Shown piece by piece: positions 230 through 52,188 of a DNA stretch of 64,000 bases. The stretch lies in sequence record PP761450.1; one strand, written 5' to 3'. Both the position numbers and the translations under genes were made by a program. The DNA comes from Escherichia phage LHE287. The notes under the pieces were generated by a model. It was given only the letters and a program-made list of their open reading frames with translations. It did not search any database and was not told the origin of the DNA. The first letter of the stretch is position 1; every line of letters starts with the position of its first letter.

Positions 230-306
230 GGTCCTGTAGCTCAGTCGGTTAGAGCAGTGAACTCATAATTCATTGGTCATTGGTTCAAACCCAATCAGGA
301 TCACCA
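230..306 (+). tRNA. tRNA-Met (anticodon CAT; could be a lysidine-type Ile tRNA)
   Basis: Cloverleaf: acceptor GGTCCTG/CAGGATC, D-arm TAGCTCAGTCGGTTAGAGCA, anticodon stem-loop GTGAA-CTCATAA-TTCAT, T-arm ATTGG-TTCAAAC-CCAAT, 3' ACCA. Confidence 0.8.
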
Positions 307-560
307 TATTAAGGGGTGTGAAACATGACACTCTGACAAACACGGTAAGCGTTGCAGCCAGCTGTGTATAAAATGGGGATGACTCCACATCGGAAACGAT
401 GCCCCAACTTCCAGAAATGGTCAGGCGCAAAGCCTGTAAAGTTCCAGGAGATCGAACCAGAAGGCACTGGTCGCCAGTTAACCAATCGGCGCTGAGAAGC
501 GCGGGGAGTTGGGCTACGGCAGATCAAATGCTCAATCGGGTGTGAAGCCCGTCCAAATTC

Positions 561-644
561 GGGGGAGTACCAGAGTGGTCAAATGGGCCTGACTGTAAAT
601 CAGGTGTTTCGGCTTCGGTGGTTCGAATCCATCCTCCCCCACCA
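561..644 (+). tRNA. tRNA-Tyr (anticodon GTA), long variable arm
   Basis: Acceptor GGGGGAG/CTCCCCC, anticodon stem-loop CCTGA-CTGTAAA-TCAGG, long variable arm, T-loop GGTTCGAATCC, 3' ACCA. Confidence 0.8.
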
Positions 645-650
645 AATTAC

Positions 651-724
651 AGGAGCATAGCTAAGCGGTAAGGCAATGGGTTTGATCCCATGATCTCAGG
701 TTCGACTCCTGACGCGCTCTCCCA
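651..724 (+). tRNA. tRNA-like element, possibly a degenerate tRNA; anticodon unresolved
   Basis: Canonical T-arm TCAGG-TTCGACT-CCTGA and D-loop AGCGGTAA, but the acceptor stem pairs poorly and the anticodon hairpin ATGGG-TTTGAT-CCCAT has a 6-nt loop. Confidence 0.3.
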
Positions 725-780: not shown

Positions 781-809
781 AGCCGGATATCCTATCCGGC
801 TTTCTTTTT
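781..809 (+). terminator. rho-independent terminator after the tRNA cluster
   Basis: Perfect hairpin AGCCGGATA-TCC-TATCCGGCT followed by TTCTTTTT. Confidence 0.7.
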
Positions 810-933
810 ATCCCTGTCTTATTATCTTCTTATCGGCCCAAGCATGTCCTCCTTTATCATAGTTTGTTCAACGATACAAAGGGGGTTTAAAATTTAACCG
901 TTAACCCCCTGTCATAGATTTGAGGATACACCG

Positions 934-1590
934 ATGCGTAATGTTTCTATCTGGGAATTGAACGAAGTGATTTCCCGTGACACCCCTCCAATTGTCAGAC
1001 TCTTCCAATACAAGGGTGTCAAGCGCACTCTGAATGAGTTCCTGTCGCCTGTTTACGTCTACCGTGATGGCGGGTTCTTCCGCCGCGATAAAAACATCCC
1101 GAACCTTGGTATGACGTTTGATTTGAGTATCAAAGGCCAGGTTGTATTGATGGGTTATGGTAGCCTGGAACAATCTGAGAAAGGTCAGGGCGCTCCACTT
1201 ATGGTCTTCGGTTCTTTTGAACAAGCCGTGCACTGGCTGATCAGAAACGGATATGATTTCTATGGCGAAGAAAGCGCCAATTGGCGTCGTCGCAAGGTCA
1301 AGTCTGTTGATCTGGTGGATTTGAATCTGATGTACCAGGCCATGGCTCGCGAGTACGAAAAGAATCTCGTCAAGCCTGTCGCTCAGGAGAACAATGTTGT
1401 TAACACTACATCTGAGTCTTCTCATCATGACGTGAACATCGTTCCGGCCTGTGAAACGAAAGCGCCGACACCACCTACTCCTCCGGCCAGTCGTGTTCTG
1501 AATGATCAGGGCGCTCCGGTAAAACAAAAGGTCAAGAAGCCGACTTTCATGGAAAACATGATGAAGTTCCTTCGTCTGTTCAAGAAGTAA
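934..1590 (+). CDS. hypothetical protein (218 aa)
   Basis: ATG preceded by GAGGA RBS; no recognisable motif; lies 70 nt upstream of the PLP-enzyme gene. Confidence 0.55.
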   Translation: MRNVSIWELNEVISRDTPPIVRLFQYKGVKRTLNEFLSPVYVYRDGGFFRRDKNIPNLGMTFDLSIKGQVVLMGYGSLEQSEKGQGAPLMVFGSFEQAVHWLIRNGYDFYGEESANWRRRKVKSVDLVDLNLMYQAMAREYEKNLVKPVAQENNVVNTTSESSHHDVNIVPACETKAPTPPTPPASRVLNDQGAPVKQKVKKPTFMENMMKFLRLFKK

Positions 1591-1659
1591 TCCGAGATTC
1601 TCCTTTTCTATACTCCTGTAGATACACTATGATAAGCCAATGTCTACAGGAGAAATAGA

Positions 1660-2853
1660 ATGAACAAGACCATTTTCGATACCCTTTCCCTCGACCGCAA
1701 TCTGGTCCATTGGGAAGATTATCTCTACAAGCACACCCCGTGCGAACTTGTCGTCAACCCCGAAACCAATCAGCAGGTCTGGTTCAAGCGTGAAGATTAT
1801 TTTGCGCCGCTGTCCAATTATGCAAATGGACAGCAGGGCATCAACGGCAGCAAACTCCGCCAGGCCATCTGGTTGATGGTTGAGCACCTCAAGGCCGGAG
1901 GCTCCCCTGACATCATCCATGGTACTGTCGTTGGTAGTCCGCAGTCCCCTATGGCGACGGCAGTCTCTCGGCACTTCGGTGGCAAGACAACCACTGTACT
2001 CGGAGCGACCAAACCCACCACCTGTATGAACCATGAAATGGTGAAAATGAGCGCCTGGTTCGGTAGTGAGTTCAACTTCGTCGGCTCGGGTTACAACAGC
2101 ACCATCCAGCCGCGCTGTAAGAAGTTGATCGAACAACAGAATCCAAAGGCGTACTATCTGGAATATGGTATCACCCTCGACCATACAGCGCATTCTCCTG
2201 AGCGCATCGCTGGCTTCCATATGCTGGGTGGCGAGCAGGTTGCCAACATCCCAGACCATATCACCGACCTGATTATCCCAGCCGGATCGTGCAACTCTTG
2301 CACAAGCATCCTGACCGGGCTGGCAATGCATCCGAAGCCTAATCTGAAGCGTGTGTATCTGATTGGCATCGGTCCTAACCGCCTTGACTTTATCGAGAGC
2401 CGTCTGCGCATCATCGGCAAACATGCCAATCTGCCGCACATTGTCGACTTCACCCGTCGCTATCACGACAACCCAGACTATGTACACGGCAAGAAGGAGC
2501 TTCAGCATGCCTCTAAGAGCGTTTCGCTGGCTGGCCTCCTAAGTGGTATCAGGAAGAAGGAAGAGCCAGAGGTCGTGCTTCCTCGCTTTGAGGTACACCA
2601 TTGGGATCTTCACACCACTAATTGGGTTCGTTACAATGACCTGATGGAATATCAGTGGGGTGATATCGAATTGCATCCTCGCTATGAAGGCAAGGTCATG
2701 ACCTGGGTTCAGCAACACAAGCCCGAGTTGCTGAACGAGAACACTCTGTTCTGGATTGTGGGCAGCAAGCCGTACATTGAGCCAATGAAGACAGCATGCC
2801 CTGAGCTGGCTATCCCCGAAGCAGTACCTGTAAACGAATTCACCCCTTCCTGA
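1660..2853 (+). CDS. fold-type II PLP-dependent enzyme (ACC deaminase / D-cysteine desulfhydrase / Trp-synthase-beta superfamily)
   Basis: N-terminal motif FKREDYF...GINGSKLRQA resembles the KRED...GGNKxRKLE PLP-lysine region; later loop PAGSCNSCTS in the position of the phosphate-binding glycine loop; RBS AGGAGA. Confidence 0.55.
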   Translation: MNKTIFDTLSLDRNLVHWEDYLYKHTPCELVVNPETNQQVWFKREDYFAPLSNYANGQQGINGSKLRQAIWLMVEHLKAGGSPDIIHGTVVGSPQSPMATAVSRHFGGKTTTVLGATKPTTCMNHEMVKMSAWFGSEFNFVGSGYNSTIQPRCKKLIEQQNPKAYYLEYGITLDHTAHSPERIAGFHMLGGEQVANIPDHITDLIIPAGSCNSCTSILTGLAMHPKPNLKRVYLIGIGPNRLDFIESRLRIIGKHANLPHIVDFTRRYHDNPDYVHGKKELQHASKSVSLAGLLSGIRKKEEPEVVLPRFEVHHWDLHTTNWVRYNDLMEYQWGDIELHPRYEGKVMTWVQQHKPELLNENTLFWIVGSKPYIEPMKTACPELAIPEAVPVNEFTPS

Positions 2854-2988
2854 TCCCTCCTAAATACCCCATACAACCAGTGTGGGGTATCTATGAAACC
2901 TTCCTCCAATATTTCCTAGAGGCGTCCTGTACAAACCAGGCCTGGCACCTAAATACCCCCATATGGCTAACCCACTGAGGAACCCAAC

Positions 2989-3447
2989 ATGCCAACCTCC
3001 AAATTGTTTGAATCAGAATACACCAATGACATCCCTGTATGGACTGGTGTTCAAGACGGTATCACGATTGAGCTGTTTGATCGTGAAGAGACAGGCGCGG
3101 AAGAGATCTATGCAGGCGTTGAAGGCACTGATGTTGTCCGCGCCGCCGTAGCACTTGCTACCTTCCTGGAAGATGCACCGATTGATGGTGTGCCGTTCGA
3201 GGCGCACGTAGATCCCAAGGATCCGACCTCTATCATCATTACAGTGAATGGGGTGCCATACACTTCCTACAGTATCGAGACGGACGAAGAGGGCAGCGGA
3301 GCGCTGTATATTGCCACCGACCTGCAGCTGGAAGACGATGAGATGGATTATCTGATTCAGAACGGGGTGCTGCCACCGTTTACCGATGAAGAACTGGACA
3401 CGGAACTGGCTGCTGTCGGGGACGACGAAGACTTCTGGGAAGAATAA
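2989..3447 (+). CDS. highly acidic protein (152 aa), candidate DNA mimic
   Basis: Asp/Glu-rich throughout (EELDTELAAVGDDEDFWEE); RBS GAGGA; followed by a bidirectional terminator. Confidence 0.55.
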   Translation: MPTSKLFESEYTNDIPVWTGVQDGITIELFDREETGAEEIYAGVEGTDVVRAAVALATFLEDAPIDGVPFEAHVDPKDPTSIIITVNGVPYTSYSIETDEEGSGALYIATDLQLEDDEMDYLIQNGVLPPFTDEELDTELAAVGDDEDFWEE

Positions 3448-5628: not shown

Positions 5629-8628
5629 ATGACCGTTTTCTATACGAACGTTGCCCGCAGGGGCAATGACCTGTTGATTCGAATTGCAGATGACATGGGT
5701 AATCGCCGTCTGTTGAAAAAGAAATTCGAACCCACTCTCTATTTACCCACGGCTGACTATTCAAATGTTGAAAAGGTCGGTCTTCTCAATGAACCCCTGG
5801 TAGCCAAGCAGTTCCCTTCCATGCGTGACGCTGACAACTATCTTGAAGAGTACAAGGAAGTCCAGGGTGCTTCCATTTACGGACAGACCGATTATGCATA
5901 CCAGTTCATCGCCCATAGCTTTCCTGGAAAGATTGAGCCGGATTACTCCAACATCCATATTGCTAACCTCGATATCGAAGTGTTCTCCGCCGGGTGGAAA
6001 GACGGAAAGATGACCAAAGGTCCATTCCCTCACCCAACCATTGAGCAGCAGACGTTCAAAGGGAATGAGGCGCGCATTCGCCGCTTCCATAAACAAGTGC
6101 TGGCTAACCATGAATTTGTCCGTGAGCACTTCCCTGGTTCTTTCATCAGCAACAACGTCACTGATCAGTTCCCTATCATTGATAGCAATGGCAAGATCAC
6201 CCAGGACATGAATGCGGCGTTCCCCATTACCCTGATCCAGCTTCAGGATATGGCGACCAATAAGTTCATGGTCTGGGGTATGCCCTGTGCCAAAGATCGT
6301 AACAAATTCGCATACGACACCGAAGACAAAGAGATCGGCGGCCTTGAGGTTGTTTATCAGGAGTTCACCACCGAACAAGATCTGCTGCGCTCGTTCCTAG
6401 ACTTCTGGTCACAGCGTCAGTTCGACGGCTGGACAGGCTGGAACATTGAGACGTTTGATAGCCCTTATCTTGTTGAGCGCATGAATCAGGTTCTGGGTGA
6501 AGCCGAAACATCGCGCCTCAGTCCTTGGGGTATCATTAAGAAGCGTATCATTCGCGATAAGAAGGGCGATATCACGACGTATCAGTTCGTGGGTTGCCCT
6601 ATGCTCGATTATATGCAGATCTACAAGAAACACACGTACACCACCCGTGAACGCTACTCTCTTGACTGGATTGCGTATTGTGAGCTGGGTGAGAAGAAGA
6701 TGGACTACAGTGAGAGCAAGTCGCTCTTTGATCTGTACTTCAACGACTACTGCAAACACACCCGATATGGTATCAAAGACGTTAAGCTGGTATGGCGACT
6801 TGAACAGAAGCTGCGCCTGCTCCAGCTGATGTTCGTCCTGGCCTACCGCACCAAGTCCAACTATGAAGACGGTCTGGGCACTGTGGCTCCGTGGCTGGCC
6901 ATGTGCTACTATCGCCTGTACGAGAAGGGGATAGTGCCTAAGATCCAGCGTGTATACGATGGTCCGACCGACTTTGAGGGCGCATACGTCATGGATGTGA
7001 CACCAGGAATCTACTTCTGGGTCTTCTCGGAAGATTTGAACTCCCTGTATCCTCACATCATACAGCAGTACAACCTCGGTCCAGAGACTATCGTTGGCGA
7101 CAAACACCAGCGCCGCGAGATTATTGAGGCTATGTGTGAAGAGCTGGCTGCTCAGATGAATAACATGGCAACGCCGATGCACAAACGTCGGTTGATGAAA
7201 GCCCTTCACGACAAGCTGTTGCGTGCGGTTGACGAACGCCTGCAGGTTGTTGATGAGTTGGTTGCCCTGGGTGAGTTCCACTTTGAAACCCTGCGCCGCT
7301 ACAACGTGTCGTTCACGCCGAACGTTCAATTCTTCAGCAACGAGAAGATGTCGTTCCTGTCTGAAATCATGCGTGGTATCTACAGCGACCGTAAAGTAGA
7401 GAAGGCCAAGGGTCTGAAGTATGAGCAGTGGGCTGGCTGGTGTAAAGAGATGTCGAAGGGCGACTTCCATCTTGAGTCTGCCATGAAGTCTCGCTACTAT
7501 GACCCAGAGTGGTATGAAGAGCACAAGAACATTGATCTTGATGCCCTGACCGAAGTGATGAAGAAGTGGGAAGACCTGGGCGTTGCTCAAGATACCCTAC
7601 AGCAAGGTCTGAAGATCTTGATGAACGCAGGTTATGGCGCTATCTCGAACGTCTGGTTCAAAGAGTACTTCAACCTCAACATTGCCGAAGCCATCACCAC
7701 ATCCGGTCAGCTGATCAACAAGTGGAACAAGCGTTACACTGATGACTATCTGAACAAGCTGTGTGGTACAACAGGCCAGGACTTCGTCATCGCAGGTGAT
7801 ACCGACTCCAACTACATCTGCATTGAGCGTCTTGTCAAGCAGTTGTGGCCTGATGTTACTGACCATCATGCTATGGTTGATAATATCGACCAATGGATCA
7901 AAGACAACTACCAGCCGAAGACCAATGAGTGGGCACAGCTTCTGTGTAACACCATGAACGGATTTGAACAGCGCATGGTATGGGAGCGTGAGGTCATTGC
8001 GTCAGCCGCTGTCTGGCGAGCCAAGAAGATGTATGCCATGGCCGTGTACGACAGTGAGGGTATCAAGTACGAGAAGCCGAAGATCAAGTTCAAAGGTCTG
8101 GAAGCCCGCAAGTCCACCACGCCGGAATGGTGTCGTGAGCGTCTTGTCAAGTGTTATGAGAAGATCCTACTCGGCACCGAAGAGGAAGTACAGGCGCTCA
8201 TCTCCCAGTACAAAGAGGAGTACATGAAACTCTCTGTAGACGATATCGCCAAGGCTTCCGGCGTGTCCGACATAGAGAAGTGTGTGGCTGCTGACGGATC
8301 GTTCATCTCTGGTGCTCATTTTGCTGCCAAGGCGTGTGTGGGCTACAACCGTCTGGTTGAGAAGAACGAAGATCTGGGTCTACCGATGATCGAGTCGGGT
8401 GATAAGGTACAGATGGTGTTGTTGAAGCCGGGCAACCCGTTTGGGCAGAACTACTTTGCATATCCTGAGTTCTTCCCCGAGGAGCTTGGTCTGGGCAAAT
8501 GGGTGGATTATCAGGCGGCCTTTGAGAAGTCCTTCATTGATCCGATTCAGTCTATCCTCGACGTGGTCGGCTGGTCACACAAGCGCCGTGTGAACCTTCT
8601 TGCCATGATGCAAAAGAAGAAAGGTTGA
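5629..8628 (+). CDS. 43: family B DNA polymerase (T4 gp43-like), 999 aa
   Basis: Exonuclease motif LDIEV, polymerase motif A DLNSLYP, motif C GDTDS; size and T4-like genomic context. Confidence 0.95.
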   Translation: MTVFYTNVARRGNDLLIRIADDMGNRRLLKKKFEPTLYLPTADYSNVEKVGLLNEPLVAKQFPSMRDADNYLEEYKEVQGASIYGQTDYAYQFIAHSFPGKIEPDYSNIHIANLDIEVFSAGWKDGKMTKGPFPHPTIEQQTFKGNEARIRRFHKQVLANHEFVREHFPGSFISNNVTDQFPIIDSNGKITQDMNAAFPITLIQLQDMATNKFMVWGMPCAKDRNKFAYDTEDKEIGGLEVVYQEFTTEQDLLRSFLDFWSQRQFDGWTGWNIETFDSPYLVERMNQVLGEAETSRLSPWGIIKKRIIRDKKGDITTYQFVGCPMLDYMQIYKKHTYTTRERYSLDWIAYCELGEKKMDYSESKSLFDLYFNDYCKHTRYGIKDVKLVWRLEQKLRLLQLMFVLAYRTKSNYEDGLGTVAPWLAMCYYRLYEKGIVPKIQRVYDGPTDFEGAYVMDVTPGIYFWVFSEDLNSLYPHIIQQYNLGPETIVGDKHQRREIIEAMCEELAAQMNNMATPMHKRRLMKALHDKLLRAVDERLQVVDELVALGEFHFETLRRYNVSFTPNVQFFSNEKMSFLSEIMRGIYSDRKVEKAKGLKYEQWAGWCKEMSKGDFHLESAMKSRYYDPEWYEEHKNIDLDALTEVMKKWEDLGVAQDTLQQGLKILMNAGYGAISNVWFKEYFNLNIAEAITTSGQLINKWNKRYTDDYLNKLCGTTGQDFVIAGDTDSNYICIERLVKQLWPDVTDHHAMVDNIDQWIKDNYQPKTNEWAQLLCNTMNGFEQRMVWEREVIASAAVWRAKKMYAMAVYDSEGIKYEKPKIKFKGLEARKSTTPEWCRERLVKCYEKILLGTEEEVQALISQYKEEYMKLSVDDIAKASGVSDIEKCVAADGSFISGAHFAAKACVGYNRLVEKNEDLGLPMIESGDKVQMVLLKPGNPFGQNYFAYPEFFPEELGLGKWVDYQAAFEKSFIDPIQSILDVVGWSHKRRVNLLAMMQKKKG

Positions 8629-8690: not shown

Positions 8691-9032
8691 ATGAAACTCA
8701 ATAAGATTCTTCTGGTGTGTGCTCTGGCTTTCTCTACCACTGCGTGTTCCACCCTTCTGGACGTTGCTTCTACTGTAGACCTTGACGCGCCGACGTTCAC
8801 CAATGAGCAGGCCGTGTCCAAGATGGAAGACACCATCAAGGCGCATGCAGCACTGGACAACACTACCCCAGGTCCGCTCCAAACTGTCTGCAACTATGAC
8901 GATTCCATCCAGGAAGACGAAACTTACCACTGCATCACCTACGTGAAGCAGGCCTCCGTCGTTCTGTATGCAGATTGTACCGAAGAACAGTGTGTTGCTA
9001 CAGGCTACGATAAAGTTGAGGAAGACAAATGA
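8691..9032 (+). CDS. putative secreted protein or lipoprotein (113 aa)
   Basis: Signal-peptide-like N-terminus MKLNKILLVCALAFSTTAC with Cys after the hydrophobic core; internal ATG chosen for its AGGTGA RBS. Confidence 0.5.
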   Translation: MKLNKILLVCALAFSTTACSTLLDVASTVDLDAPTFTNEQAVSKMEDTIKAHAALDNTTPGPLQTVCNYDDSIQEDETYHCITYVKQASVVLYADCTEEQCVATGYDKVEEDK

Positions 9033-9805
9033 ACAACCTGGTTTGTATCTATGATATGAAATCAAAGGTCGGTGGCCTGTATCGCGTCCTCGTGGATGTT
9101 GACCTGACGTTGGTCGACAGCCTCTCCCCTTGGGTGCAGTGGTTTAACGAAGAGAATCTCAGCTTATCCAAGCATTATGACGGTCATGGACCAGCGCCGT
9201 TCCAGCCGATTACCAAAGAGTGTTATATGTCCCATGCTGGCGACCTGGCTATTCTGATGCGTGAACGTGCGCATCCGGCGTGGCTATACCATGAAGTCCA
9301 ATTGGGGATGCACAAACAACGTGTGCCAAGCGGTAACGATCCTATGGACTGGTGGCGTCGCCCTGACTTGTACGCCAAGATGAACCCACTTCCTGGCGCT
9401 TACGAGTTCCTGGTGAATCTGAAGAAGATTCTGCTCGAAGACTTTGACAATGTTGAATTCATCGCAGTGTCCAAGTGTGAGCCGGAACACGAGCGCAGCA
9501 AGCGCCAGTTTGTCTATGACAAGTTCCCTGGTATCTTCAACGGGTTTGTCAGCACCGACGAAAAGCATCTGCTGGCTGGCGATGTCCTGATTGATGACAA
9601 TCCGAAGTATGTCGAGCCATGCGGCCTGAACAACATCTTTGTCATCTTTGTTCCTCAGGGCAATTATGAAAAACTGGATCTTTCGAATTCGGAAGACATG
9701 CTTTATATTAAACCAGTAGAAGGCCAGAATCACTTCGACTTCCTGAACCGCAATATTGTCGAAGTGGTGAACCGCCTGATTAGTCATTATCAATACGTCC
9801 GATAG
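9029..9805 (+). CDS. HAD-superfamily phosphatase, candidate 5'(3')-deoxyribonucleotidase
   Basis: HAD motif I VDVDLTLVDS near the N-terminus and DD motif VLIDDNPKY; start overlaps the upstream stop. Confidence 0.45.
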   Translation: MNNLVCIYDMKSKVGGLYRVLVDVDLTLVDSLSPWVQWFNEENLSLSKHYDGHGPAPFQPITKECYMSHAGDLAILMRERAHPAWLYHEVQLGMHKQRVPSGNDPMDWWRRPDLYAKMNPLPGAYEFLVNLKKILLEDFDNVEFIAVSKCEPEHERSKRQFVYDKFPGIFNGFVSTDEKHLLAGDVLIDDNPKYVEPCGLNNIFVIFVPQGNYEKLDLSNSEDMLYIKPVEGQNHFDFLNRNIVEVVNRLISHYQYVR

Positions 9806-9814
9806 GAGGACATC

Positions 9815-10120
9815 GTGCAAGAACAATCCAAGTTCGGGGAAACCCCAGACAAGCATTCCGGTGATAGCGACATGGATGGTGTGATTATCTATGTGAACAA
9901 CTTCATTCGTCAGCAGGAGACTCCAACTCCTATCGGTGCAGCCAAGGCTCTTCATGATGTACTGGTGAAGATCGGCCAGCGCTCTGAAGCAGATGAAATC
10001 TTCTATAACTTCGACGACCAGTATAAAGTTAAGTTTGAAGAGAATGGCCACCCACAGGTTGCTGTGTTCTGGGCACCTTGGCTGGGCGGCGTGAGCTGGC
10101 GTATTGAGGATGCTGTGTAA
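9815..10120 (+). CDS. hypothetical protein (101 aa), GTG start
   Basis: GTG start with strong AGGAGGA RBS; stop overlaps the next start (TAATG). Confidence 0.5.
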   Translation: MQEQSKFGETPDKHSGDSDMDGVIIYVNNFIRQQETPTPIGAAKALHDVLVKIGQRSEADEIFYNFDDQYKVKFEENGHPQVAVFWAPWLGGVSWRIEDAV

Positions 10121-11037
10121 TGGCAAAAATTATCGTAGTGAAAGGAACCAGCGGTACGGGTAAGGGCACCCGTGTTGTCCAGTTCATCGAATGGCTGCGC
10201 ACTAAGCTGGAGCCTACCGAACTGACCTACACCGTTGGTGACAAGACTCGCCCGTTTGGCTTGAAGTTCGGAGAGCTGAAGTTAATCTTCGTTGGACAGT
10301 ACACCGTGTCTAACAAATCCGGCCTGGCTTCCTGGACTTCAATGGATGCAATCCATGCTGCTACAGGCTCAGGCGATATTGCTCGTGATCTAATCAAGTG
10401 CTGGTTGGTTCAGGGATACACTCTGGTGTGCGAGGGTGAACCCCTCATGCTGTCGGACAAATGGCGTCCTGAATGGATGTTCAAGAACTATCCGATTGAA
10501 TCATTGGCGCTGCTGTACTTTGCGTACCCCGACCGCTATCAGTACGATGCTCGTATCCGTGGTCGATCTGGTAAAGAAGCAGGGAACTCCGGCTGGTCGC
10601 GCAACGAATCTTACTACAAGGAGTTTGAGAAGTCGAAGGCCGAAATGCTGGCGCTGGGCTTCACTGTGGCTGTTGATGATTACAGCGGACAGGATATCCT
10701 GTATAAATCACCGGATGCCAACACCCAGGAGTTCACGACCAAACAGCAGTCCGAGTTGGCGGTACTACCGTTCGACGCCCCGCTGTGGGTTGTGGGTAAT
10801 GCGATTTGTCATCAGATACGCTCTGAACTGCGCGGTGTTGACATGCACACCAAAGACTTCTACGCCTACTGTGAAACCAATCCGATGACTCGTGAAATCG
10901 GCGGCCAGGATCCTTTGGCGCACAGAGTCCCTGAGAAGCCGCAGAAGGCATCCAAAACTAAAACCAAGGCGAGCGCCCAGCCAGAAGCAACGAAGGCAGC
11001 GTCGCGCTCTCTCCTTGACCTGATGAAGAAGGGGTGA
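10120..11037 (+). CDS. P-loop kinase, paralog of 51529..52188; candidate 5-hmdU DNA kinase
   Basis: Walker A GTSGTGKGT at the N-terminus, Walker-B-like LVCEGEP; shares motif order with the second P-loop protein; basic low-complexity C-terminus. Confidence 0.5.
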   Translation: MAKIIVVKGTSGTGKGTRVVQFIEWLRTKLEPTELTYTVGDKTRPFGLKFGELKLIFVGQYTVSNKSGLASWTSMDAIHAATGSGDIARDLIKCWLVQGYTLVCEGEPLMLSDKWRPEWMFKNYPIESLALLYFAYPDRYQYDARIRGRSGKEAGNSGWSRNESYYKEFEKSKAEMLALGFTVAVDDYSGQDILYKSPDANTQEFTTKQQSELAVLPFDAPLWVVGNAICHQIRSELRGVDMHTKDFYAYCETNPMTREIGGQDPLAHRVPEKPQKASKTKTKASAQPEATKAASRSLLDLMKKG

Positions 11038-11237: not shown

Positions 11238-11611
11238 AAATTCAAATTCCTCGCGATGCTGTGGCTGTTGCGATCGACTACACCGGAAACGCCAAGCACA
11301 TTACTGCCGTGCGCCTGATTCCTGAAAAGAACTGCGTCATCCCTCAGTTCCAACTGAATGCCAATCCGTCATCCAAAGACTTCGGCAAGTGGTTGCAGGC
11401 TGCTCCGTTCCGTACCCAGACGAACGCTCAGATGTTCATCTCGGGTAAGACTCACACTGCAGCCCGTCTGTGGTTCGTGACCGCTGACCGTCGCTTTGTC
11501 GATATGTGGGAACGTCCGATGGGGTTCGTGAAGCCGGAAGATATTCAGCTGGCTCCTGAGCCTGAAGCTGTGGCTCCTGAAGAGGAAGCGAAAGATGCAT
11601 CATTTATCTAA
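11234..11611 (+). CDS. hypothetical protein (125 aa)
   Basis: Start overlaps the upstream stop (ATGA); internal ATG of the track ORF 11099..11611. Confidence 0.45.
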   Translation: MKIQIPRDAVAVAIDYTGNAKHITAVRLIPEKNCVIPQFQLNANPSSKDFGKWLQAAPFRTQTNAQMFISGKTHTAARLWFVTADRRFVDMWERPMGFVKPEDIQLAPEPEAVAPEEEAKDASFI

Positions 11612-12830
11612 AATGCCGACGGGCTATACGCCTCCGGCTGAATGGAAGTACCCGATTGACCTGGCTGTTGATTATCGCAAGCCTGAGAATCGCATGTACC
11701 TGCTCAAGGCTTGGGTGGAGGCGCTGTCCTACACAGAAGAGCACAACCAGCAGATGCGTCTGATGGACTATGCGATCGAAGTCACTGAAGGCATCAGCCT
11801 CGAACAGAAAGTCGAGCGCAAGATCTGGATGGCATTCCTGTGGGGTTGTTGCTATAACGCCGTCGGGCCGTGGACGATCTACAGTGAGTTCCCTGTGCCA
11901 CCTCAGTCTAAGGAAGAGATGCAGCGCTTCTCTGATTGGTATAATCTGAACTTTGATCGCATGCGATTCGATACCGACTGTCGCTACCGCAAGTCCAAGA
12001 TGATTCCGTGTGTTCAGTCCTATATTGACTGGCTGGCTGGTCGTACTCAATATGACGCTTTCCGTGGGATGTTGGTGTGCATCGATAAGACAGAACAATT
12101 CACCCAGCTGTGGGACACGGCGATGTCCTGGAAATACTTCGGTCGCCTGAGCGCCTGGAACTTCCTAGAAGCCCTGAACATGGTCTTCGGGAACGAATAC
12201 ACCATTGACGTCCCTGGCTTCATGCTGCGTGATCGTGATGGAAGCGAGTCCAACCGTAATGGCGCGGCGTTCTTGTCCAACCGTGACGATTGGGTGACTA
12301 AACACGGGAAGAAAAAGATCAACGGTTGTCCTATCACGGATGAAGAGTGTGACATCCTTGAGGCCGACCTTGAGCAGGCGTTCCAGGATTGTGTGGCTGA
12401 GTTCGGGCACCTGACGTTCATCAACCGCCTGAACTTTGAAACCTCCGGCGCTTGTTGGCTGAAGAAATTCTTCCGACTGAAGAATACCCGTTACATCGGG
12501 TGGGACGCAGAGCGTACCTGGGATGAGATAGACTACATGGAACGCGTCTGGCCTGAATACTCCTGCGCAGCGCTCTGGGAAGCCCGTTCGCTCTGGCTGC
12601 CAGATACCCTGTTGTGCGAAAAGGCTCCTGCAGGGCACGTTCCAGGCGTCCAGAAGTGGAAGATGCCTGTATTCTTTGAGACTGGTGTTCCTCTGCATAT
12701 CTGGCACCTGCAAAAGGGTACGCGCTGGGAACCGTCCGAGGTGTGTACGAACCTGAAGATGCCTGTGCGTAAGGTTGAGGACAAGTCGAAGTCCAGCAGT
12801 GTCAACCTCATGGCACTCTTGAAACGCTGA
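11595..12830 (+). CDS. hypothetical protein (411 aa), Trp/Cys-rich; candidate DNA-modification enzyme
   Basis: ATG with GAGGAAG RBS; co-transcribed downstream of the P-loop kinase; no motif recognised by eye. Confidence 0.5.
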   Translation: MHHLSKMPTGYTPPAEWKYPIDLAVDYRKPENRMYLLKAWVEALSYTEEHNQQMRLMDYAIEVTEGISLEQKVERKIWMAFLWGCCYNAVGPWTIYSEFPVPPQSKEEMQRFSDWYNLNFDRMRFDTDCRYRKSKMIPCVQSYIDWLAGRTQYDAFRGMLVCIDKTEQFTQLWDTAMSWKYFGRLSAWNFLEALNMVFGNEYTIDVPGFMLRDRDGSESNRNGAAFLSNRDDWVTKHGKKKINGCPITDEECDILEADLEQAFQDCVAEFGHLTFINRLNFETSGACWLKKFFRLKNTRYIGWDAERTWDEIDYMERVWPEYSCAALWEARSLWLPDTLLCEKAPAGHVPGVQKWKMPVFFETGVPLHIWHLQKGTRWEPSEVCTNLKMPVRKVEDKSKSSSVNLMALLKR

Positions 12831-43640: not shown

Positions 43641-43853
43641 TCACTTCCTCATCAGTGAGAGTAGGTTGACCGTAGCCGGACGCGCATCAGGGGCGTAGAA
43701 GACGTCCTGAGAGTGCCTCTTACAGCACGGGCAATCCTTCGTGGCGATTACACAGGGAGCCTTGTCCACGGCAAATCCAGCGGCTTCGGCTTCCTTCACA
43801 GTGGTGAATGGCATGTAGGCACTTGTACCCTGCCCTCCGCATGAACATTCCAT
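43641..43853 (-). CDS. small Cys-rich protein (about 70 aa)
   Basis: ECSCGG ... KDCPCCKRH; ATG start one codon inside the track start. Confidence 0.4.
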   Translation of the reverse strand: MECSCGGQGTSAYMPFTTVKEAEAAGFAVDKAPCVIATKDCPCCKRHSQDVFYAPDARPATVNLLSLMRK

Positions 43854-49920: not shown

Positions 49921-50486
49921 TTACGTTCTCCGTAGAATTTAACGAACGGTGCCCAACCATCAAATGGATTGAGGAATTCGTAGTCCACTTTCATTTGGTC
50001 AATGAAAGCCTCTATATCGTCCTCTATGATACCAGCACGGTCGGCCTTTGAAATACGGGTGATAGGACATTTCGTACTCAGCGCCCATTCATATTCCTGA
50101 GGGGTACGCAGATCGCTCACGATATAATGGACGTGGGGGTTCTGCTCTACCAGAGGAAGCTGGAAGCGCTTGAAGAATGCCAGGAACAGATCGGGTTGTA
50201 CGTAACGCAAGCCCGTATCGCTGCCTAGATGAAGCCAGATCTGCCGTGGAGTTAAGCCCTTGGGGTTATCAGGGTGCACGTAAGGAACGTCCTTCACGGC
50301 ATCCTCTACCTCCGCTGGCAGCCATGGATAGATGTAGTTGGCCACACGGCGCAGTTCATCTGAGAACGAAAGGCGCTGGATGTCCATATCACCCTGTAGT
50401 TGGTGATAGCTGATGAGGGACTCCAAACAGAAGTCCTTACCGGAGCGCTTGCGCCCCGTAAAGAATTCAAGATTTGGATACATCAT
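49917..50486 (-). CDS. 1: deoxynucleoside monophosphate kinase (T4 gene 1-like)
   Basis: P-loop GRKRSGKD matches the T4 dNMP kinase GxKRSGKD signature; overlaps ThyA-like gene by ATGA. Confidence 0.65.
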   Translation of the reverse strand: MMYPNLEFFTGRKRSGKDFCLESLISYHQLQGDMDIQRLSFSDELRRVANYIYPWLPAEVEDAVKDVPYVHPDNPKGLTPRQIWLHLGSDTGLRYVQPDLFLAFFKRFQLPLVEQNPHVHYIVSDLRTPQEYEWALSTKCPITRISKADRAGIIEDDIEAFIDQMKVDYEFLNPFDGWAPFVKFYGERK

Positions 50487-51529
50487 ACTACACCTTCCAG
50501 GAACTTAGGATCAATGATCTTGCGGTCAACCGGGGAATGGGTGAGCGCGATGTTCAAGCCATGATCCTGAATCAGGTCCAGGTTAATGAGCTTTTCGTTC
50601 AGTTTGCAGTGCAGACAGTACGCCATCTGTACAATCAGGCCACGATCAGCATCATATTCCTTCAGGTGGGCGACCACAGTTTCCCACGGGCTGCCGATAT
50701 CACAGTGATGAAGCACACCAGTGAACAGATTGCGGATATGGTTCTGGTTGGTCACGTTCGTGAAGTGAATCATGGAGTTGATGAACCCAGCTTCTACTTT
50801 GGTGTCCTTCGTGATCTTGCCAAGCTGCTTCTGGCTGACTTCATTGTTGTAGTAATGAAGATTGTTAGAGAATAGCTTGTACTGACCGACATCAACATCT
50901 AACACCTGAGCAATCACTTCCTGAAGAATAGAGAACTCAATGAAGTTGATTGAACTCATCCCCCACAGAACATCCTGTGAGCGGTTGATGACCGTCAGGT
51001 TCAGACGACCTTCAACGATGGAGAACAACAGAGCCAGATTACACACCATGTCCTTGGTCTTCGCTTCGCCGCTCTCGCTGAACTTCGCCAGACCAGCATC
51101 CGAATCTAGAGCCGGGTCATAGATGGTGAGGTACGCCTGGCGAGTGTTTGGGTTCTTGCGCAGGCGGTTGATAACGCTATCCAGCTGGCCATGGGCGTAC
51201 AGACGCGGACCATAAGCAGCTCGCCATGTTACCCCATCATCCGAAAAGTTAGCAGCGCGAGGCAATACGCGTGACAGGAACTTTATGTCGTTGCGACCTG
51301 ACAACACCCAGAAGGTCTCGCCGATGGCAGCGATAGCCGATGAGTTGCGACCTTCAACGGAGAGCCAGCGGTCACGGATGTCGGCGACGGTTATGGTCAC
51401 GCCATCAAGGAAGCGGGTGCTATCAGTATTGATTTCAGCATTACCAGGATCAGATTCGATCCCGAATTCACGGATAGCCAAGACAGCCTGCTTCAGCATG
51501 TCATTGTTGTTAATTGCTTTGATTTCCAT
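50483..51529 (-). CDS. thymidylate-synthase-family enzyme; candidate dUMP hydroxymethylase
   Basis: ThyA-fold motifs RQAYLTIYDP, Cys in KDMVCNLALLF, and NRSQDVLWGMSSINFIEFSIL (RSxD ... NI/F region; Asn suggests a dUMP substrate); the hydroxymethylase role is inferred from context. Confidence 0.6.
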   Translation of the reverse strand: MEIKAINNNDMLKQAVLAIREFGIESDPGNAEINTDSTRFLDGVTITVADIRDRWLSVEGRNSSAIAAIGETFWVLSGRNDIKFLSRVLPRAANFSDDGVTWRAAYGPRLYAHGQLDSVINRLRKNPNTRQAYLTIYDPALDSDAGLAKFSESGEAKTKDMVCNLALLFSIVEGRLNLTVINRSQDVLWGMSSINFIEFSILQEVIAQVLDVDVGQYKLFSNNLHYYNNEVSQKQLGKITKDTKVEAGFINSMIHFTNVTNQNHIRNLFTGVLHHCDIGSPWETVVAHLKEYDADRGLIVQMAYCLHCKLNEKLINLDLIQDHGLNIALTHSPVDRKIIDPKFLEGVV

Positions 51530-52188
51530 CAGATACTCCCAAAATCACGACAGAGGAATGCCATCACAGCCTGGTCTACTGTTAGGCCGTGAGACTTCAT
51601 CATACCCGCAGCCACCGTAGGGAACAAGTCTTTATGTCGTTGACGATGGTCATGAACTCTCTCCCACTTCTCGACCACCAGACTTTCATTGAAGTCCACA
51701 CCACCGTTACGTGATTTAACGCGGGAGATACACGTTTCAAGGGGAGTGTCCATAAAGAGCACAACCAATTCACGTGGTGGGCGTGTCAGGCGGGGGATCC
51801 AAGAACTCAATAATGTGGATGGAATGATACCTTCGAAAATCACATCATATTTCAAGTATTCTGGTTGGTCAGCAATAGACAACGCGAACAACATCTGCTC
51901 AGTGTCCTTCAGGGAATCAACCCCCTTGGACTTCGACTTGTCATATTTACCGATACAGACCACGTTGAACGAAGGACAGACAGTCAGCATGACCTTGCCG
52001 TTATGGGTCACGACATACGCCTGAGGATCCCTCTCCGCCAGCTGAGACGGCACAGTGGATTTACCGCTACCATTGGAGCCTTTGACGTAGTAGATTTGCC
52101 CTCGTGCTGGGTAGATCCCCTTTACGACGGGTGGTTTAAAGAATGTGTGGACGGGGCGCTTCATCAGCCCCTTCAGGGAGTAGGACAT
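51529..52188 (-). CDS. P-loop kinase, paralog of 10120..11037
   Basis: Walker A GSNGSGKST, Walker-B-like DVIFEGIIP; same motif order as the other P-loop kinase; first gene of the coupled operon. Confidence 0.5.
   Translation of the reverse strand: MSYSLKGLMKRPVHTFFKPPVVKGIYPARGQIYYVKGSNGSGKSTVPSQLAERDPQAYVVTHNGKVMLTVCPSFNVVCIGKYDKSKSKGVDSLKDTEQMLFALSIADQPEYLKYDVIFEGIIPSTLLSSWIPRLTRPPRELVVLFMDTPLETCISRVKSRNGGVDFNESLVVEKWERVHDHRQRHKDLFPTVAAGMMKSHGLTVDQAVMAFLCRDFGSI

Follow-up and report, generated by a model that had tools for sequence, protein, structure and literature searches.

The locus and its phage

Two adjacent genes that follow a tRNA cluster in Escherichia phage LHE287 raise the question of whether a phage-encoded, apparently PLP-dependent enzyme acts on free amino acids or on the phage DNA itself, and whether its upstream neighbor takes part in the reaction. 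The window analyzed here is a 64,000-nucleotide stretch of this phage (record PP761450.1), in which the locus is laid out as follows:

230..720, + strand: tRNA cluster, upstream of both genes
230..306, + strand: tRNA-Met (ARAGORN)
561..644, + strand: tRNA-Tyr (ARAGORN)
651..720, + strand: weak third tRNA-like match (Rfam tRNA)
781..801: terminator-like hairpin after the tRNA cluster (terminator scan)
934..1590, + strand: Ackermannviridae-specific protein, ortholog of ViI Vi01_181/orf00224, 218 aa
1591..1659, + strand: intergenic element, nearly invariant and predicted to form a hairpin
1660..2853, + strand: 397-aa ViI gp226 ortholog, predicted to be a fold-type II, PLP-dependent decarboxylase

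The tRNA cluster that the initial annotation had placed beside these genes is recovered, with tRNA-Met and tRNA-Tyr at the positions listed above and Rfam tRNA matches of 70.6, 61.4, and 32 bits. Antisense ORFs at 901..1527 and 1627..2508 were discounted because all the homology evidence lies on the + strand. The phage itself belongs to the Ackermannviridae (ViI-like, Aglimvirinae) and is not T4-like, so that the initial view of the PLP gene as unusual for a T4-like phage has to be abandoned; in the Ackermannviridae, the gene is universal. A relative of the window with 88.8% DNA identity, SKML-39, appears in a list of ViI-like phages that encode the kinase (PMC5889632), and reviews describe the modification genes as conserved across the family (PMC11721090).

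A fold-type II PLP enzyme

The 1660..2853 gene, which is preceded by an AGGAG ribosome-binding site 8 nt 5' of its ATG, encodes the KRED...GINGSKLRQA motif that the initial annotation had singled out, and residues 43-69 of the product, KREDYFAPLSNYANGQQGINGSKLRQA, match that description exactly. Within this segment, K65 (codon at nt 1852-1854) is the predicted Schiff-base lysine: it aligns both with K92 of Salmonella phage ViI gp226, the residue proposed by Lee et al. to bind PLP (PMC8989533), and with the catalytic K51 of ACC deaminase, and, like S93, Y342, and E343, it is invariant across 44 homologs that span 42-93% identity.

A phmmer search of PDB sequences with the PLP protein gave no match at E<=10; a profile search was therefore needed, and the active-site geometry, having no solved structure within that threshold, is a prediction. 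The 44-sequence profile reaches ACC deaminase 1rqx (E=7.6e-6), with K51, S78, Y294, and E295 of the latter aligned to K65, S93, Y342, and E343, respectively, in an alignment where the Y/E segment alone is not significant. The Pfam PALP family (PF00291) matches the product over aa 26-249 only, at E=1.5e-7 and 31.5 bits, short of its gathering score of 35 bits; a precomputed PF00291 match is present in many homologs, and NCBIfam matches neither the PLP enzyme nor the ORF downstream of it. According to the AlphaFold (AF2) model (pLDDT 91.7, pTM 0.90), the protein would adopt a two-domain fold like that of the tryptophan synthase beta subunit, with residues ~275-310 forming a variable loop of low model confidence. 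When this model was compared with the PDB using Foldseek, 323 matches were obtained at E<=1e-3, the best 50 of which are all fold-type II enzymes, with D-cysteine desulfhydrase 4d97 in first place (E=1.6e-11) and ACC deaminase also among the top-ranked. The profile, the model, and the structural comparison agree, bearing out both the original assignment to fold type II and the accompanying suggestion of a likeness to ACC deaminase and D-cysteine desulfhydrase.

Should this likeness be taken at face value, 1660..2853 would encode an auxiliary metabolic enzyme that acts on free amino acids, whether a threonine ammonia-lyase/dehydratase, an ACC deaminase, or a D-cysteine desulfhydrase. The names given to such proteins in databases ('threonine ammonia lyase', 'threonine dehydratase', 'ACC deaminase/D-cysteine desulfhydrase-like') point in this direction, as does the retention of the catalytic K, S, Y, and E in a protein that, among solved folds, lies nearest to D-cysteine desulfhydrase and ACC deaminase. 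However, the members of that family that give the best structural and profile matches (1rqx, 1f2d, 4d97, 1j0a) are only 13-17% identical to the PLP protein, which differs from them in having an extra variable region of ~60 residues (aa ~256-330, partly disordered) and in carrying SPQ in place of their SNQ motif. Threonine deaminases are weaker structural matches still (E~1e-6 vs 1e-11, TM~0.46, rank 44 or lower in Foldseek), and the PLP protein contains no ACT regulatory or other extra domain detectable with Pfam.

A probable last step of thymidine hypermodification

The closest comparison is with Salmonella phage ViI gp226 (YP_004327553, Vi01_182), to which the PLP protein is 92% identical (95% positives) over 395 aa without gaps. 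The two genes occupy the same genomic position, in the order tRNA cluster, orf224, PLP gene, and then DNA polymerase, kinase 2, and AADT, and ViI has the same pathway gene set as the window. The two also differ: ViI gp226 contains a 27-residue insertion after the second codon that is absent from the window protein, and ViI has a small downstream ORF, Vi01_183, with no equivalent in the window. A mis-called start of ViI gp226 was considered and rejected, since in the alignment both genes begin at the same ATG and the 81 nt extra in ViI are a genuine insertion.

Lee et al. (PNAS 2018; NAR 2021) identified gp226 as a PLP-dependent decarboxylase that converts DNA-borne 5-O-serinylthymidine (O-SerT) to 5-(2-aminoethoxy)methyl-dU (5-NeOmdU). 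The purified ViI protein is yellow, with absorbance at 410-425 nm, and decarboxylated O-SerT DNA to give a 301-u nucleoside with the loss of one 13C (PMC8989533); lysate mixtures without gp226 gave a product 44 u heavier (Lee et al.). PLP binding and O-SerT decarboxylation by the window protein would carry over from this close ortholog. Since gp226 decarboxylates an amino acid borne on DNA, whereas the enzymes of the ACC deaminase family deaminate or desulfhydrate free amino acids, the resemblance of fold is accompanied by a functional departure from that family. It is very probable, then, that 1660..2853 encodes a gp226-type DNA O-serinylthymidine decarboxylase, the enzyme that completes thymidine hypermodification in the Ackermannviridae, and a metabolic enzyme of free amino acids appears extremely improbable. 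The initial proposal that the PLP enzyme finishes a thymidine hypermodification was right and, given that gp226 had been characterized previously, the finding is not new. Most database records name these proteins 'hypothetical', 'threonine ammonia-lyase', or 'threonine dehydratase', and the result is mainly a correction of annotation.

Other genes of the pathway lie elsewhere in the window:

10120..11037, + strand: 5-hmdU DNA kinase 2, ViI gp243 ortholog (Pfam HMUD2, E=1.5e-158; 84% identity)
11595..12830, + strand: amino acid:DNA transferase (serine:DNA transferase), ViI gp247 ortholog (Pfam ADDT, E=7.3e-60; 89% identity)
50483..51529, - strand: ThyA-like protein, presumed dUMP hydroxymethylase supplying 5-hmdUMP (Thymidylat_synt, E=2.9e-16; 77% identity to ViI Vi01_060c)
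51529..52188, - strand: 5-hmdU DNA kinase 1, ViI gp67 ortholog (Pfam HMUDK_HMUD1, E=3.6e-109; 88% identity)

The counterpart of the clade-1 paralog gp160 is probably located outside the window. The co-occurrence of the PLP gene with kinase, transferase, and ThyA-like genes, looked for as a check on the pathway assignment, is seen both here and in distant relatives: in unrelated phages, distant PLP homologs adjoin ADDT, HMUD2, or radical-SAM genes, and this linkage of the family with hypermodification genes (ADDT, HMUDK, or radical-SAM) is a further argument against a metabolic role.

By the proposed scheme, the ThyA-like enzyme would supply 5-hmdUMP, to be built into DNA at replication, whereupon the 5-hmdU DNA kinases (the gp67 and gp243 orthologs) would phosphorylate the hydroxymethyl group in DNA, and the gp247-ortholog transferase would allow the side-chain oxygen of L-serine to displace the phosphate, yielding 5-O-serinylthymidine. 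Transaldimination from K65 to the free alpha-amine of the serine on the DNA could then give an external aldimine, from which the PLP enzyme would remove CO2 to leave 5-NeOmdU. In this reaction, E343 would protonate the pyridine N1 as part of the electron sink, and Y342 and S93 presumably have catalytic roles as well. 5-NeOmdU has been found in the DNA of ViI, CBA120, CBA6, 1.255.O, and phiHS2, the latter being another member of the Ackermannviridae, and we infer that the DNA of phage LHE287 contains it too. In published work on ViI-type DNA, 5-NeOmdU blocks many restriction endonucleases; with the full 5-NeOmdU gene set present, the phage DNA is therefore predicted to resist many of these enzymes, a point of importance when Ackermannviridae phages are cloned, sequenced, or used in therapy. 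A fold-type II PLP decarboxylase that acts on a base in duplex DNA is also of mechanistic interest, although that interest belongs to the published work on this enzyme class and not to the present finding.

A related chemistry is found in Pseudomonas phage M6, where gp52, described as a gp226 homolog (PMC8989533), is a PLP-dependent C-alpha-glycinylthymidine decarboxylase of the 5-NedU pathway. In both cases, an amino acid attached to thymine in DNA is decarboxylated, but the M6 substrate is a C-C-linked glycine, for which a radical-SAM isomerase is needed beforehand, and the lysine is K36. One homolog with 40% identity to the window PLP protein has a radical-SAM gene beside it, as in M6. The number of Pseudomonas records expected of M6-like phages was not seen with tblastn (E<=1e-3), and a single Pseudomonas record is present among the earlier matches.

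The upstream gene

For the 934..1590 product, the initial verdict of no recognizable function still holds, with neither Pfam nor NCBIfam giving a meaningful match; an NCBIfam match to blaDIM (E=0.086) is meaningless, and the 'ETC complex subunit' label on the CAU_YEP3 ortholog in GenBank is unsupported by any search. The protein, a member of PHROG 4050 with 88 homologs, has an alpha/beta globular domain at aa 1-146, followed by a linker that is disordered over aa 148-196 and, at the C terminus, the conserved helix TFMENMMKFLRLFKK.

The further suggestion that this protein is a partner of the PLP enzyme fared less well. That the protein is an obligate partner, or a subunit, of the decarboxylase might be expected from the layout, with the two genes side by side on one strand and a highly conserved spacer of 69 nt between them, and also from their distribution, the 934..1590 family being found in the same genera of enterobacterial Ackermannviridae, in the same record numbers, as the PLP gene; phiEa2809 and phiMAM1 still have a diverged homolog 1-2 genes away from the PLP gene, albeit downstream. 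The biochemistry speaks otherwise. Lysates containing five ViI proteins, gp67, gp160, gp226, gp243, and gp247, reconstituted 5-NeOmdU without orf224 (PMC5889632), and the individual pathway steps were run with purified enzymes that did not include it (PMC8989533). Furthermore, in five other lineages, one of them represented by the Vibrio Ackermannviridae-like phage K475, a search of the 6-10 kb around the PLP gene with the 934..1590 profile gave no match (E>0.7), and this absence beside PLP homologs outside the enterobacterial Ackermannviridae leaves the partner idea unsupported. The two proteins differ in tempo and reach as well: identity to ViI is 50% for the 934..1590 product vs 92% for the PLP enzyme, and the former family makes up 17 clusters at 50% identity among 1.84 billion representatives vs 430 clusters, counted at the different level of 90% identity and spread over many phage groups, for the latter. 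An obligate partnership is accordingly very unlikely; the 5-NeOmdU chemistry does not require 934..1590, which is a lineage-specific gene.

Tails that resemble docking peptides

A side observation concerns the C termini of proteins encoded in the window, where the DNA polymerase and two modification enzymes have docking-like tails in common. The polymerase, ADDT, HMUD2, and a 70-aa ORF at 43641..43853 end in tails of the VNLLxMM or SLLDLMKK type, and these co-vary by lineage, as illustrated by RRLF, KRLW, and RKLW in L004 and L009.

The 934..1590 product could be read in this light as a replisome- or clamp-docked accessory, made up of a globular domain, a disordered linker, and a C-terminal docking helix, that would act on replicating DNA, either independently of hypermodification or in support of it. 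Its architecture, with the folded domain, disordered stretch, and conserved terminal helix described above, is what this reading calls for, and the tails of the polymerase, ADDT, HMUD2, and the 70-aa ORF offer an analogy that extends to their co-variation between lineages. However, the tail of the 934..1590 product is alike in character only, matching neither VNLLxMM nor SLLDLMKK, and a fold search with the product was uninformative, so we consider such a role unlikely. A more specific version, in which 934..1590 is a docked adaptor that brings the tail-less PLP decarboxylase to new DNA, and the tails of the polymerase, HMUD2, and the transferase form one docking arrangement, is a distinctly long shot; if true, it would mean that thymidine hypermodification is physically coupled to the replication fork.

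The N terminus of the PLP enzyme (TIFDTLSL) was also considered as a docking peptide of the kind found at the N termini of SSB and UvsX. This candidate was rejected because TIF..SLDR is kept across lineages with differing polymerase tails and because the TIFDTLSL segment is confidently modeled within the enzyme fold.

The intergenic element

The spacer between the two genes (1591..1659) is conserved beyond its surroundings, almost every base being the same in ViI, ZQ1, and CAU_YEP3, whereas the upstream coding sequence has diverged. The hairpin sequence has no second copy within the window and is therefore not a repeated regulatory box. The predicted RNA fold of the element has an energy of -21 kcal/mol (z=-4.15), with none of 200 shuffled sequences as stable, and the Shine-Dalgarno sequence of the PLP gene lies within the 3' arm of the predicted hairpin; the element may be a promoter, a 5'-UTR, or a translational control element.

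Identity and fold of the PLP enzyme

The 397-aa product of the ORF at 1660..2853 (+), which follows an AGGAG ribosome-binding site, is confirmed as a fold-type II PLP enzyme by domain match, invariant residues, profile comparison, structural model and Foldseek. Pfam PALP covers aa 26-249 (E=1.5e-7; at 31.5 bits, slightly below the 35-bit gathering threshold), and the motif quoted in the initial annotation is present at residues 43-69 (KREDYFAPLSNYANGQQGINGSKLRQA). Across an alignment of 44 homologs, with identities ranging from 42 to 93%, N62, G63, K65, R67, S93, P94, Q95, G209, N212, H339, P340, Y342, E343 and K345 are invariant. The proposed likeness to ACC deaminase and D-cysteine desulfhydrase holds: the 44-sequence profile matches 1rqx (E=7.6e-6) and 4d8t (E=4e-3), respectively, with the expected PLP lysine, K65, aligned to K51 of 1rqx, S93 to S78, and AGSCNS (208-213) to the phosphate-binding loop of ACC deaminase; Y342/E343 pair with Y294/E295 in a second segment that is not significant alone. 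The AlphaFold model, computed on the alignment (pLDDT 91.7, pTM 0.90), is poorly defined only at ~275-310, and its top Foldseek match in the PDB is D-cysteine desulfhydrase 4d97 (E=1.6e-11); ACC deaminases and 1j0a come next, and serine/threonine dehydratases and cysteine synthases score far lower.

That this enzyme finishes a thymidine hypermodification, as had been surmised, is supported by the pathway genes in the window and by Salmonella phage ViI gp226 (YP_004327553), a PLP-dependent decarboxylase (Lee et al., NAR 2021, PMC8989533) that is 92% identical to the window protein over 395 gap-free residues and of which the latter is, by this comparison, the evident ortholog. In the alignment, ViI K92, the proposed Schiff-base lysine (PMC8989533), is the counterpart of window K65, the 27-residue offset arising because ViI has an 81-nt insertion directly behind the ATG that the two genes share. 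Purified gp226 is yellow, absorbs at 410-425 nm, and turns O-serinylthymidine within DNA into 5-NeOmdU (5-(2-aminoethoxy)methyl-dU), a 301-u nucleoside; exactly one labelled carbon of a 13C3,15N-serine-derived substrate is lost through it, and lysate mixtures lacking it yield a product 44 u heavier (PMC8989533). In the ViI record, the gene is Vi01_182/orf00226, past the tRNA region and Vi01_181/orf00224 and ahead of the DNA polymerase.

In a megablast of window 800..3000 against phage records, the best of the 272 matches are Ackermannviridae, the nearest relatives being Escherichia phages vB_EcoM-ZQ1 (96.5% identity) and AV101, both Aglimvirinae; Salmonella phage SKML-39 is 88.8% identical. 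The window is therefore ViI-like, not T4-like (the initial supposition), and the PLP gene, far from unusual, is universal in Ackermannviridae. Given this universality and the orthology to a characterised enzyme, the finding is not new. A 2024 review (PMC11721090) describes the modification genes as conserved family-wide, 5-NeOmdU has been measured in another member, with the same PLP decarboxylase named (2026 preprint), and SKML-39 has been counted among the ViI-like kinase-encoding phages (2018 paper, PMC5889632). The AV101 record annotates the PLP gene as merely 300 aa, with a late start.

Proposed mechanism and pathway genes

In the ViI pathway described in the literature, a ThyA-like enzyme produces 5-hmdUMP, DNA kinases phosphorylate 5-hmdU in DNA, a transferase joins L-serine via the oxygen of its side chain, and decarboxylation by the PLP enzyme follows. 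Judging by how it aligns with ACC deaminase, K65 would bind PLP as the internal aldimine until the serine alpha-amine displaces it, AGSCNS would be the phosphate-binding loop, and E343 would be placed next to the pyridine nitrogen, a position at which an acidic side chain favours the quinonoid intermediate required for decarboxylation; C-alpha could be reprotonated by Y342 or K65. Unlike the small-molecule enzymes, the window protein has a variable, partly disordered segment at ~256-330, which, speculatively, might contact DNA.

Pathway genes and DNA polymerase of the window
5629..8628, family-B DNA polymerase
10120..11037 (+), HMUD2 (5-hmdU DNA kinase 2), Pfam HMUD2 E=1.5e-158; ViI gp243, 84% identity
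11595..12830 (+), amino acid:DNA transferase, Pfam ADDT E=7.3e-60; ViI gp247, 89% identity
50483..51529 (-), ThyA-like, Pfam Thymidylat_synt E=2.9e-16; ViI Vi01_060c, 77% identity
51529..52188 (-), 5-hmdU DNA kinase, Pfam HMUDK_HMUD1 E=3.6e-109; ViI gp67, 88% identity

The anticipated co-occurrence with modification genes is thus found in the window and extends to distant PLP homologs in other phage loci. The L004 homolog (54% identity) precedes pol, NT5C, HMUD2 and ADDT; ADDT directly follows the L006 homolog (44%) and is ~10 kb from that of L008 (48%). At L007 8995..11041, a gp226-family enzyme (40% identity to the window protein) immediately follows a radical-SAM gene, the arrangement of phage M6; from its gene content, this is apparently an M6-like C-C-linked hypermodification cassette using the ViI-type decarboxylase family. 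It is located between ParB-like genes.

An NT5C-type 5'-deoxynucleotidase gene, 9029..9805 (+), lies between the DNA polymerase and HMUD2 in the window, and the order pol, NT5C, HMUD2, ADDT recurs in L004 and phiEa2809, suggesting that controlling the nucleotide pool for modification is a conserved role of this gene. In Vibrio-type Ackermannviridae-like phages (L004 11183..12421, L009 7161..8957), the PLP gene is directly followed by a sigma-70-family gene, and upstream of it an HU-like gene stands in place of the enterobacterial 218-aa ORF. ViI and AV101 (L001 41853..42302, L013 2595..3059) have an extra ~150-aa ORF (Vi01_183) between the PLP gene and an acidic 152-aa protein, with no equivalent in the window (2853..2989) or ZQ1. 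For orthologs of 2989..3447, the phiMAM1 record notes likeness to a LIMEstone1 'unknown structural protein'.

The upstream neighbour

As the initial annotation stated, the ORF at 934..1590 has no recognisable function: Pfam and NCBIfam give no match, and it belongs to PHROG 4050, which has no assigned function. Its ViI ortholog, Vi01_181/orf00224, is merely 50% identical, and the family is narrowly distributed, with 88 homologs and only 17 clusters when 1.84 billion representatives were searched exhaustively with its profile. The further proposal, that it is a required partner of the PLP enzyme, is not supported. The five ViI proteins sufficient to make 5-NeOmdU do not include orf224 (PMC5889632, PMC8989533), which is thus dispensable for synthesis, and single pathway steps worked with purified enzymes (PMC8989533). 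Beside PLP homologs of five lineages the neighbour is absent, its profile having no match close to the PLP gene in L004, L006, L007, L008 or Vibrio phage K475, in which the upstream position is taken by an HU-like gene. By tblastn, the PLP gene occurs in 347 phage records, 61 of them Vibrio phages, whereas the neighbour occurs in 266, with no Vibrio phage among them. A diverged homolog does adjoin the PLP gene, or lie one gene off, on the downstream side in phiEa2809 and phiMAM1; this linkage speaks only weakly for a partnership because it comes from one strongly syntenic family.

Shared C-terminal tails

DNA polymerase, the HMUD2 kinase, the amino acid:DNA transferase and a 70-aa ORF end in similar tails that co-vary between lineages, the window type standing against RRLF/KRLW/RKLW in Vibrio-type phages and QSLF in L006.

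C-terminal tails
Window 8587..8628, DNA polymerase, ...RRVNLLAMMQKKKG (VNLLAMMQKKKG)
Window 11005..11037, HMUD2 kinase, ...SRSLLDLMKKG
Window 12798..12830, amino acid:DNA transferase, ...SSVNLMALLKR
Window 43641..43670 (-), 70-aa ORF 43641..43853, ...TVNLLSLMRK
L004 DNA polymerase, ...RRLF
L004 HMUD2 kinase, ...KRLW
L004 amino acid:DNA transferase, ...RRLF
Vibrio phage K475 DNA polymerase, ...RKLW
L006 amino acid:DNA transferase, ...QSLF

The observation also covers L001, L002, L004, L006, L009 and L010. A strict pattern for the tails of the window has 4 matches in 19,032 positions, 3 of them at a C-terminus, a post hoc count since the pattern was defined once the tails had been seen. From sequence, the tails look like a shared docking peptide, for instance for a sliding clamp, and a DnaN-like clamp is encoded in L006; their co-variation suggests that a shared, perhaps clamp-binding, peptide couples thymidine hypermodification to the replisome. 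We found no mention of such tails in Lee et al. 2021 (PMC8989533) or elsewhere in the literature searched. No tail of this kind is present on the PLP enzyme; that of the 934..1590 product resembles the others in character only. A replisome-docked accessory role would be an unlikely, if interesting, reading of the latter protein. Related-looking N-termini occur in the gp67 kinase (MSYSLKGLMKRP), UvsX (MASSLMDRMLK) and SSB (MGNLFDRLK).

Intergenic hairpin and tRNA end

Hardly a base of the 69-nt spacer at 1591..1659 differs among ViI, ZQ1 and CAU_YEP3, although the flanking and upstream coding sequence diverges. RNA folding predicts a hairpin here (-21 kcal/mol, z=-4.15), with the Shine-Dalgarno of the PLP gene paired within its 3' arm. 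A TATACAAT-like box is common to phiMAM1 and phiEa2809 at the equivalent site, so a promoter would be an alternative reading of the spacer.

The PLP gene does lie beside a tRNA cluster, with which the window opens.

Features of the tRNA end
230..306, tRNA-Met
561..644, tRNA-Tyr
651..720 (+), weak third tRNA-like match, Rfam tRNA model 32 bits (gathering score 29)
781..801, terminator-like hairpin closing the cluster

The match at 651..720, directly after tRNA-Tyr, is not called by ARAGORN; its acceptor stem looks imperfect, and it may therefore be a degenerate or pseudo-tRNA. Past the 781..801 hairpin, an imperfect inverted repeat, AGGGGGTTTAAAATTTAACCGTTAACCCCCT, occupies 870..933, just 5' of the start codon at 934.
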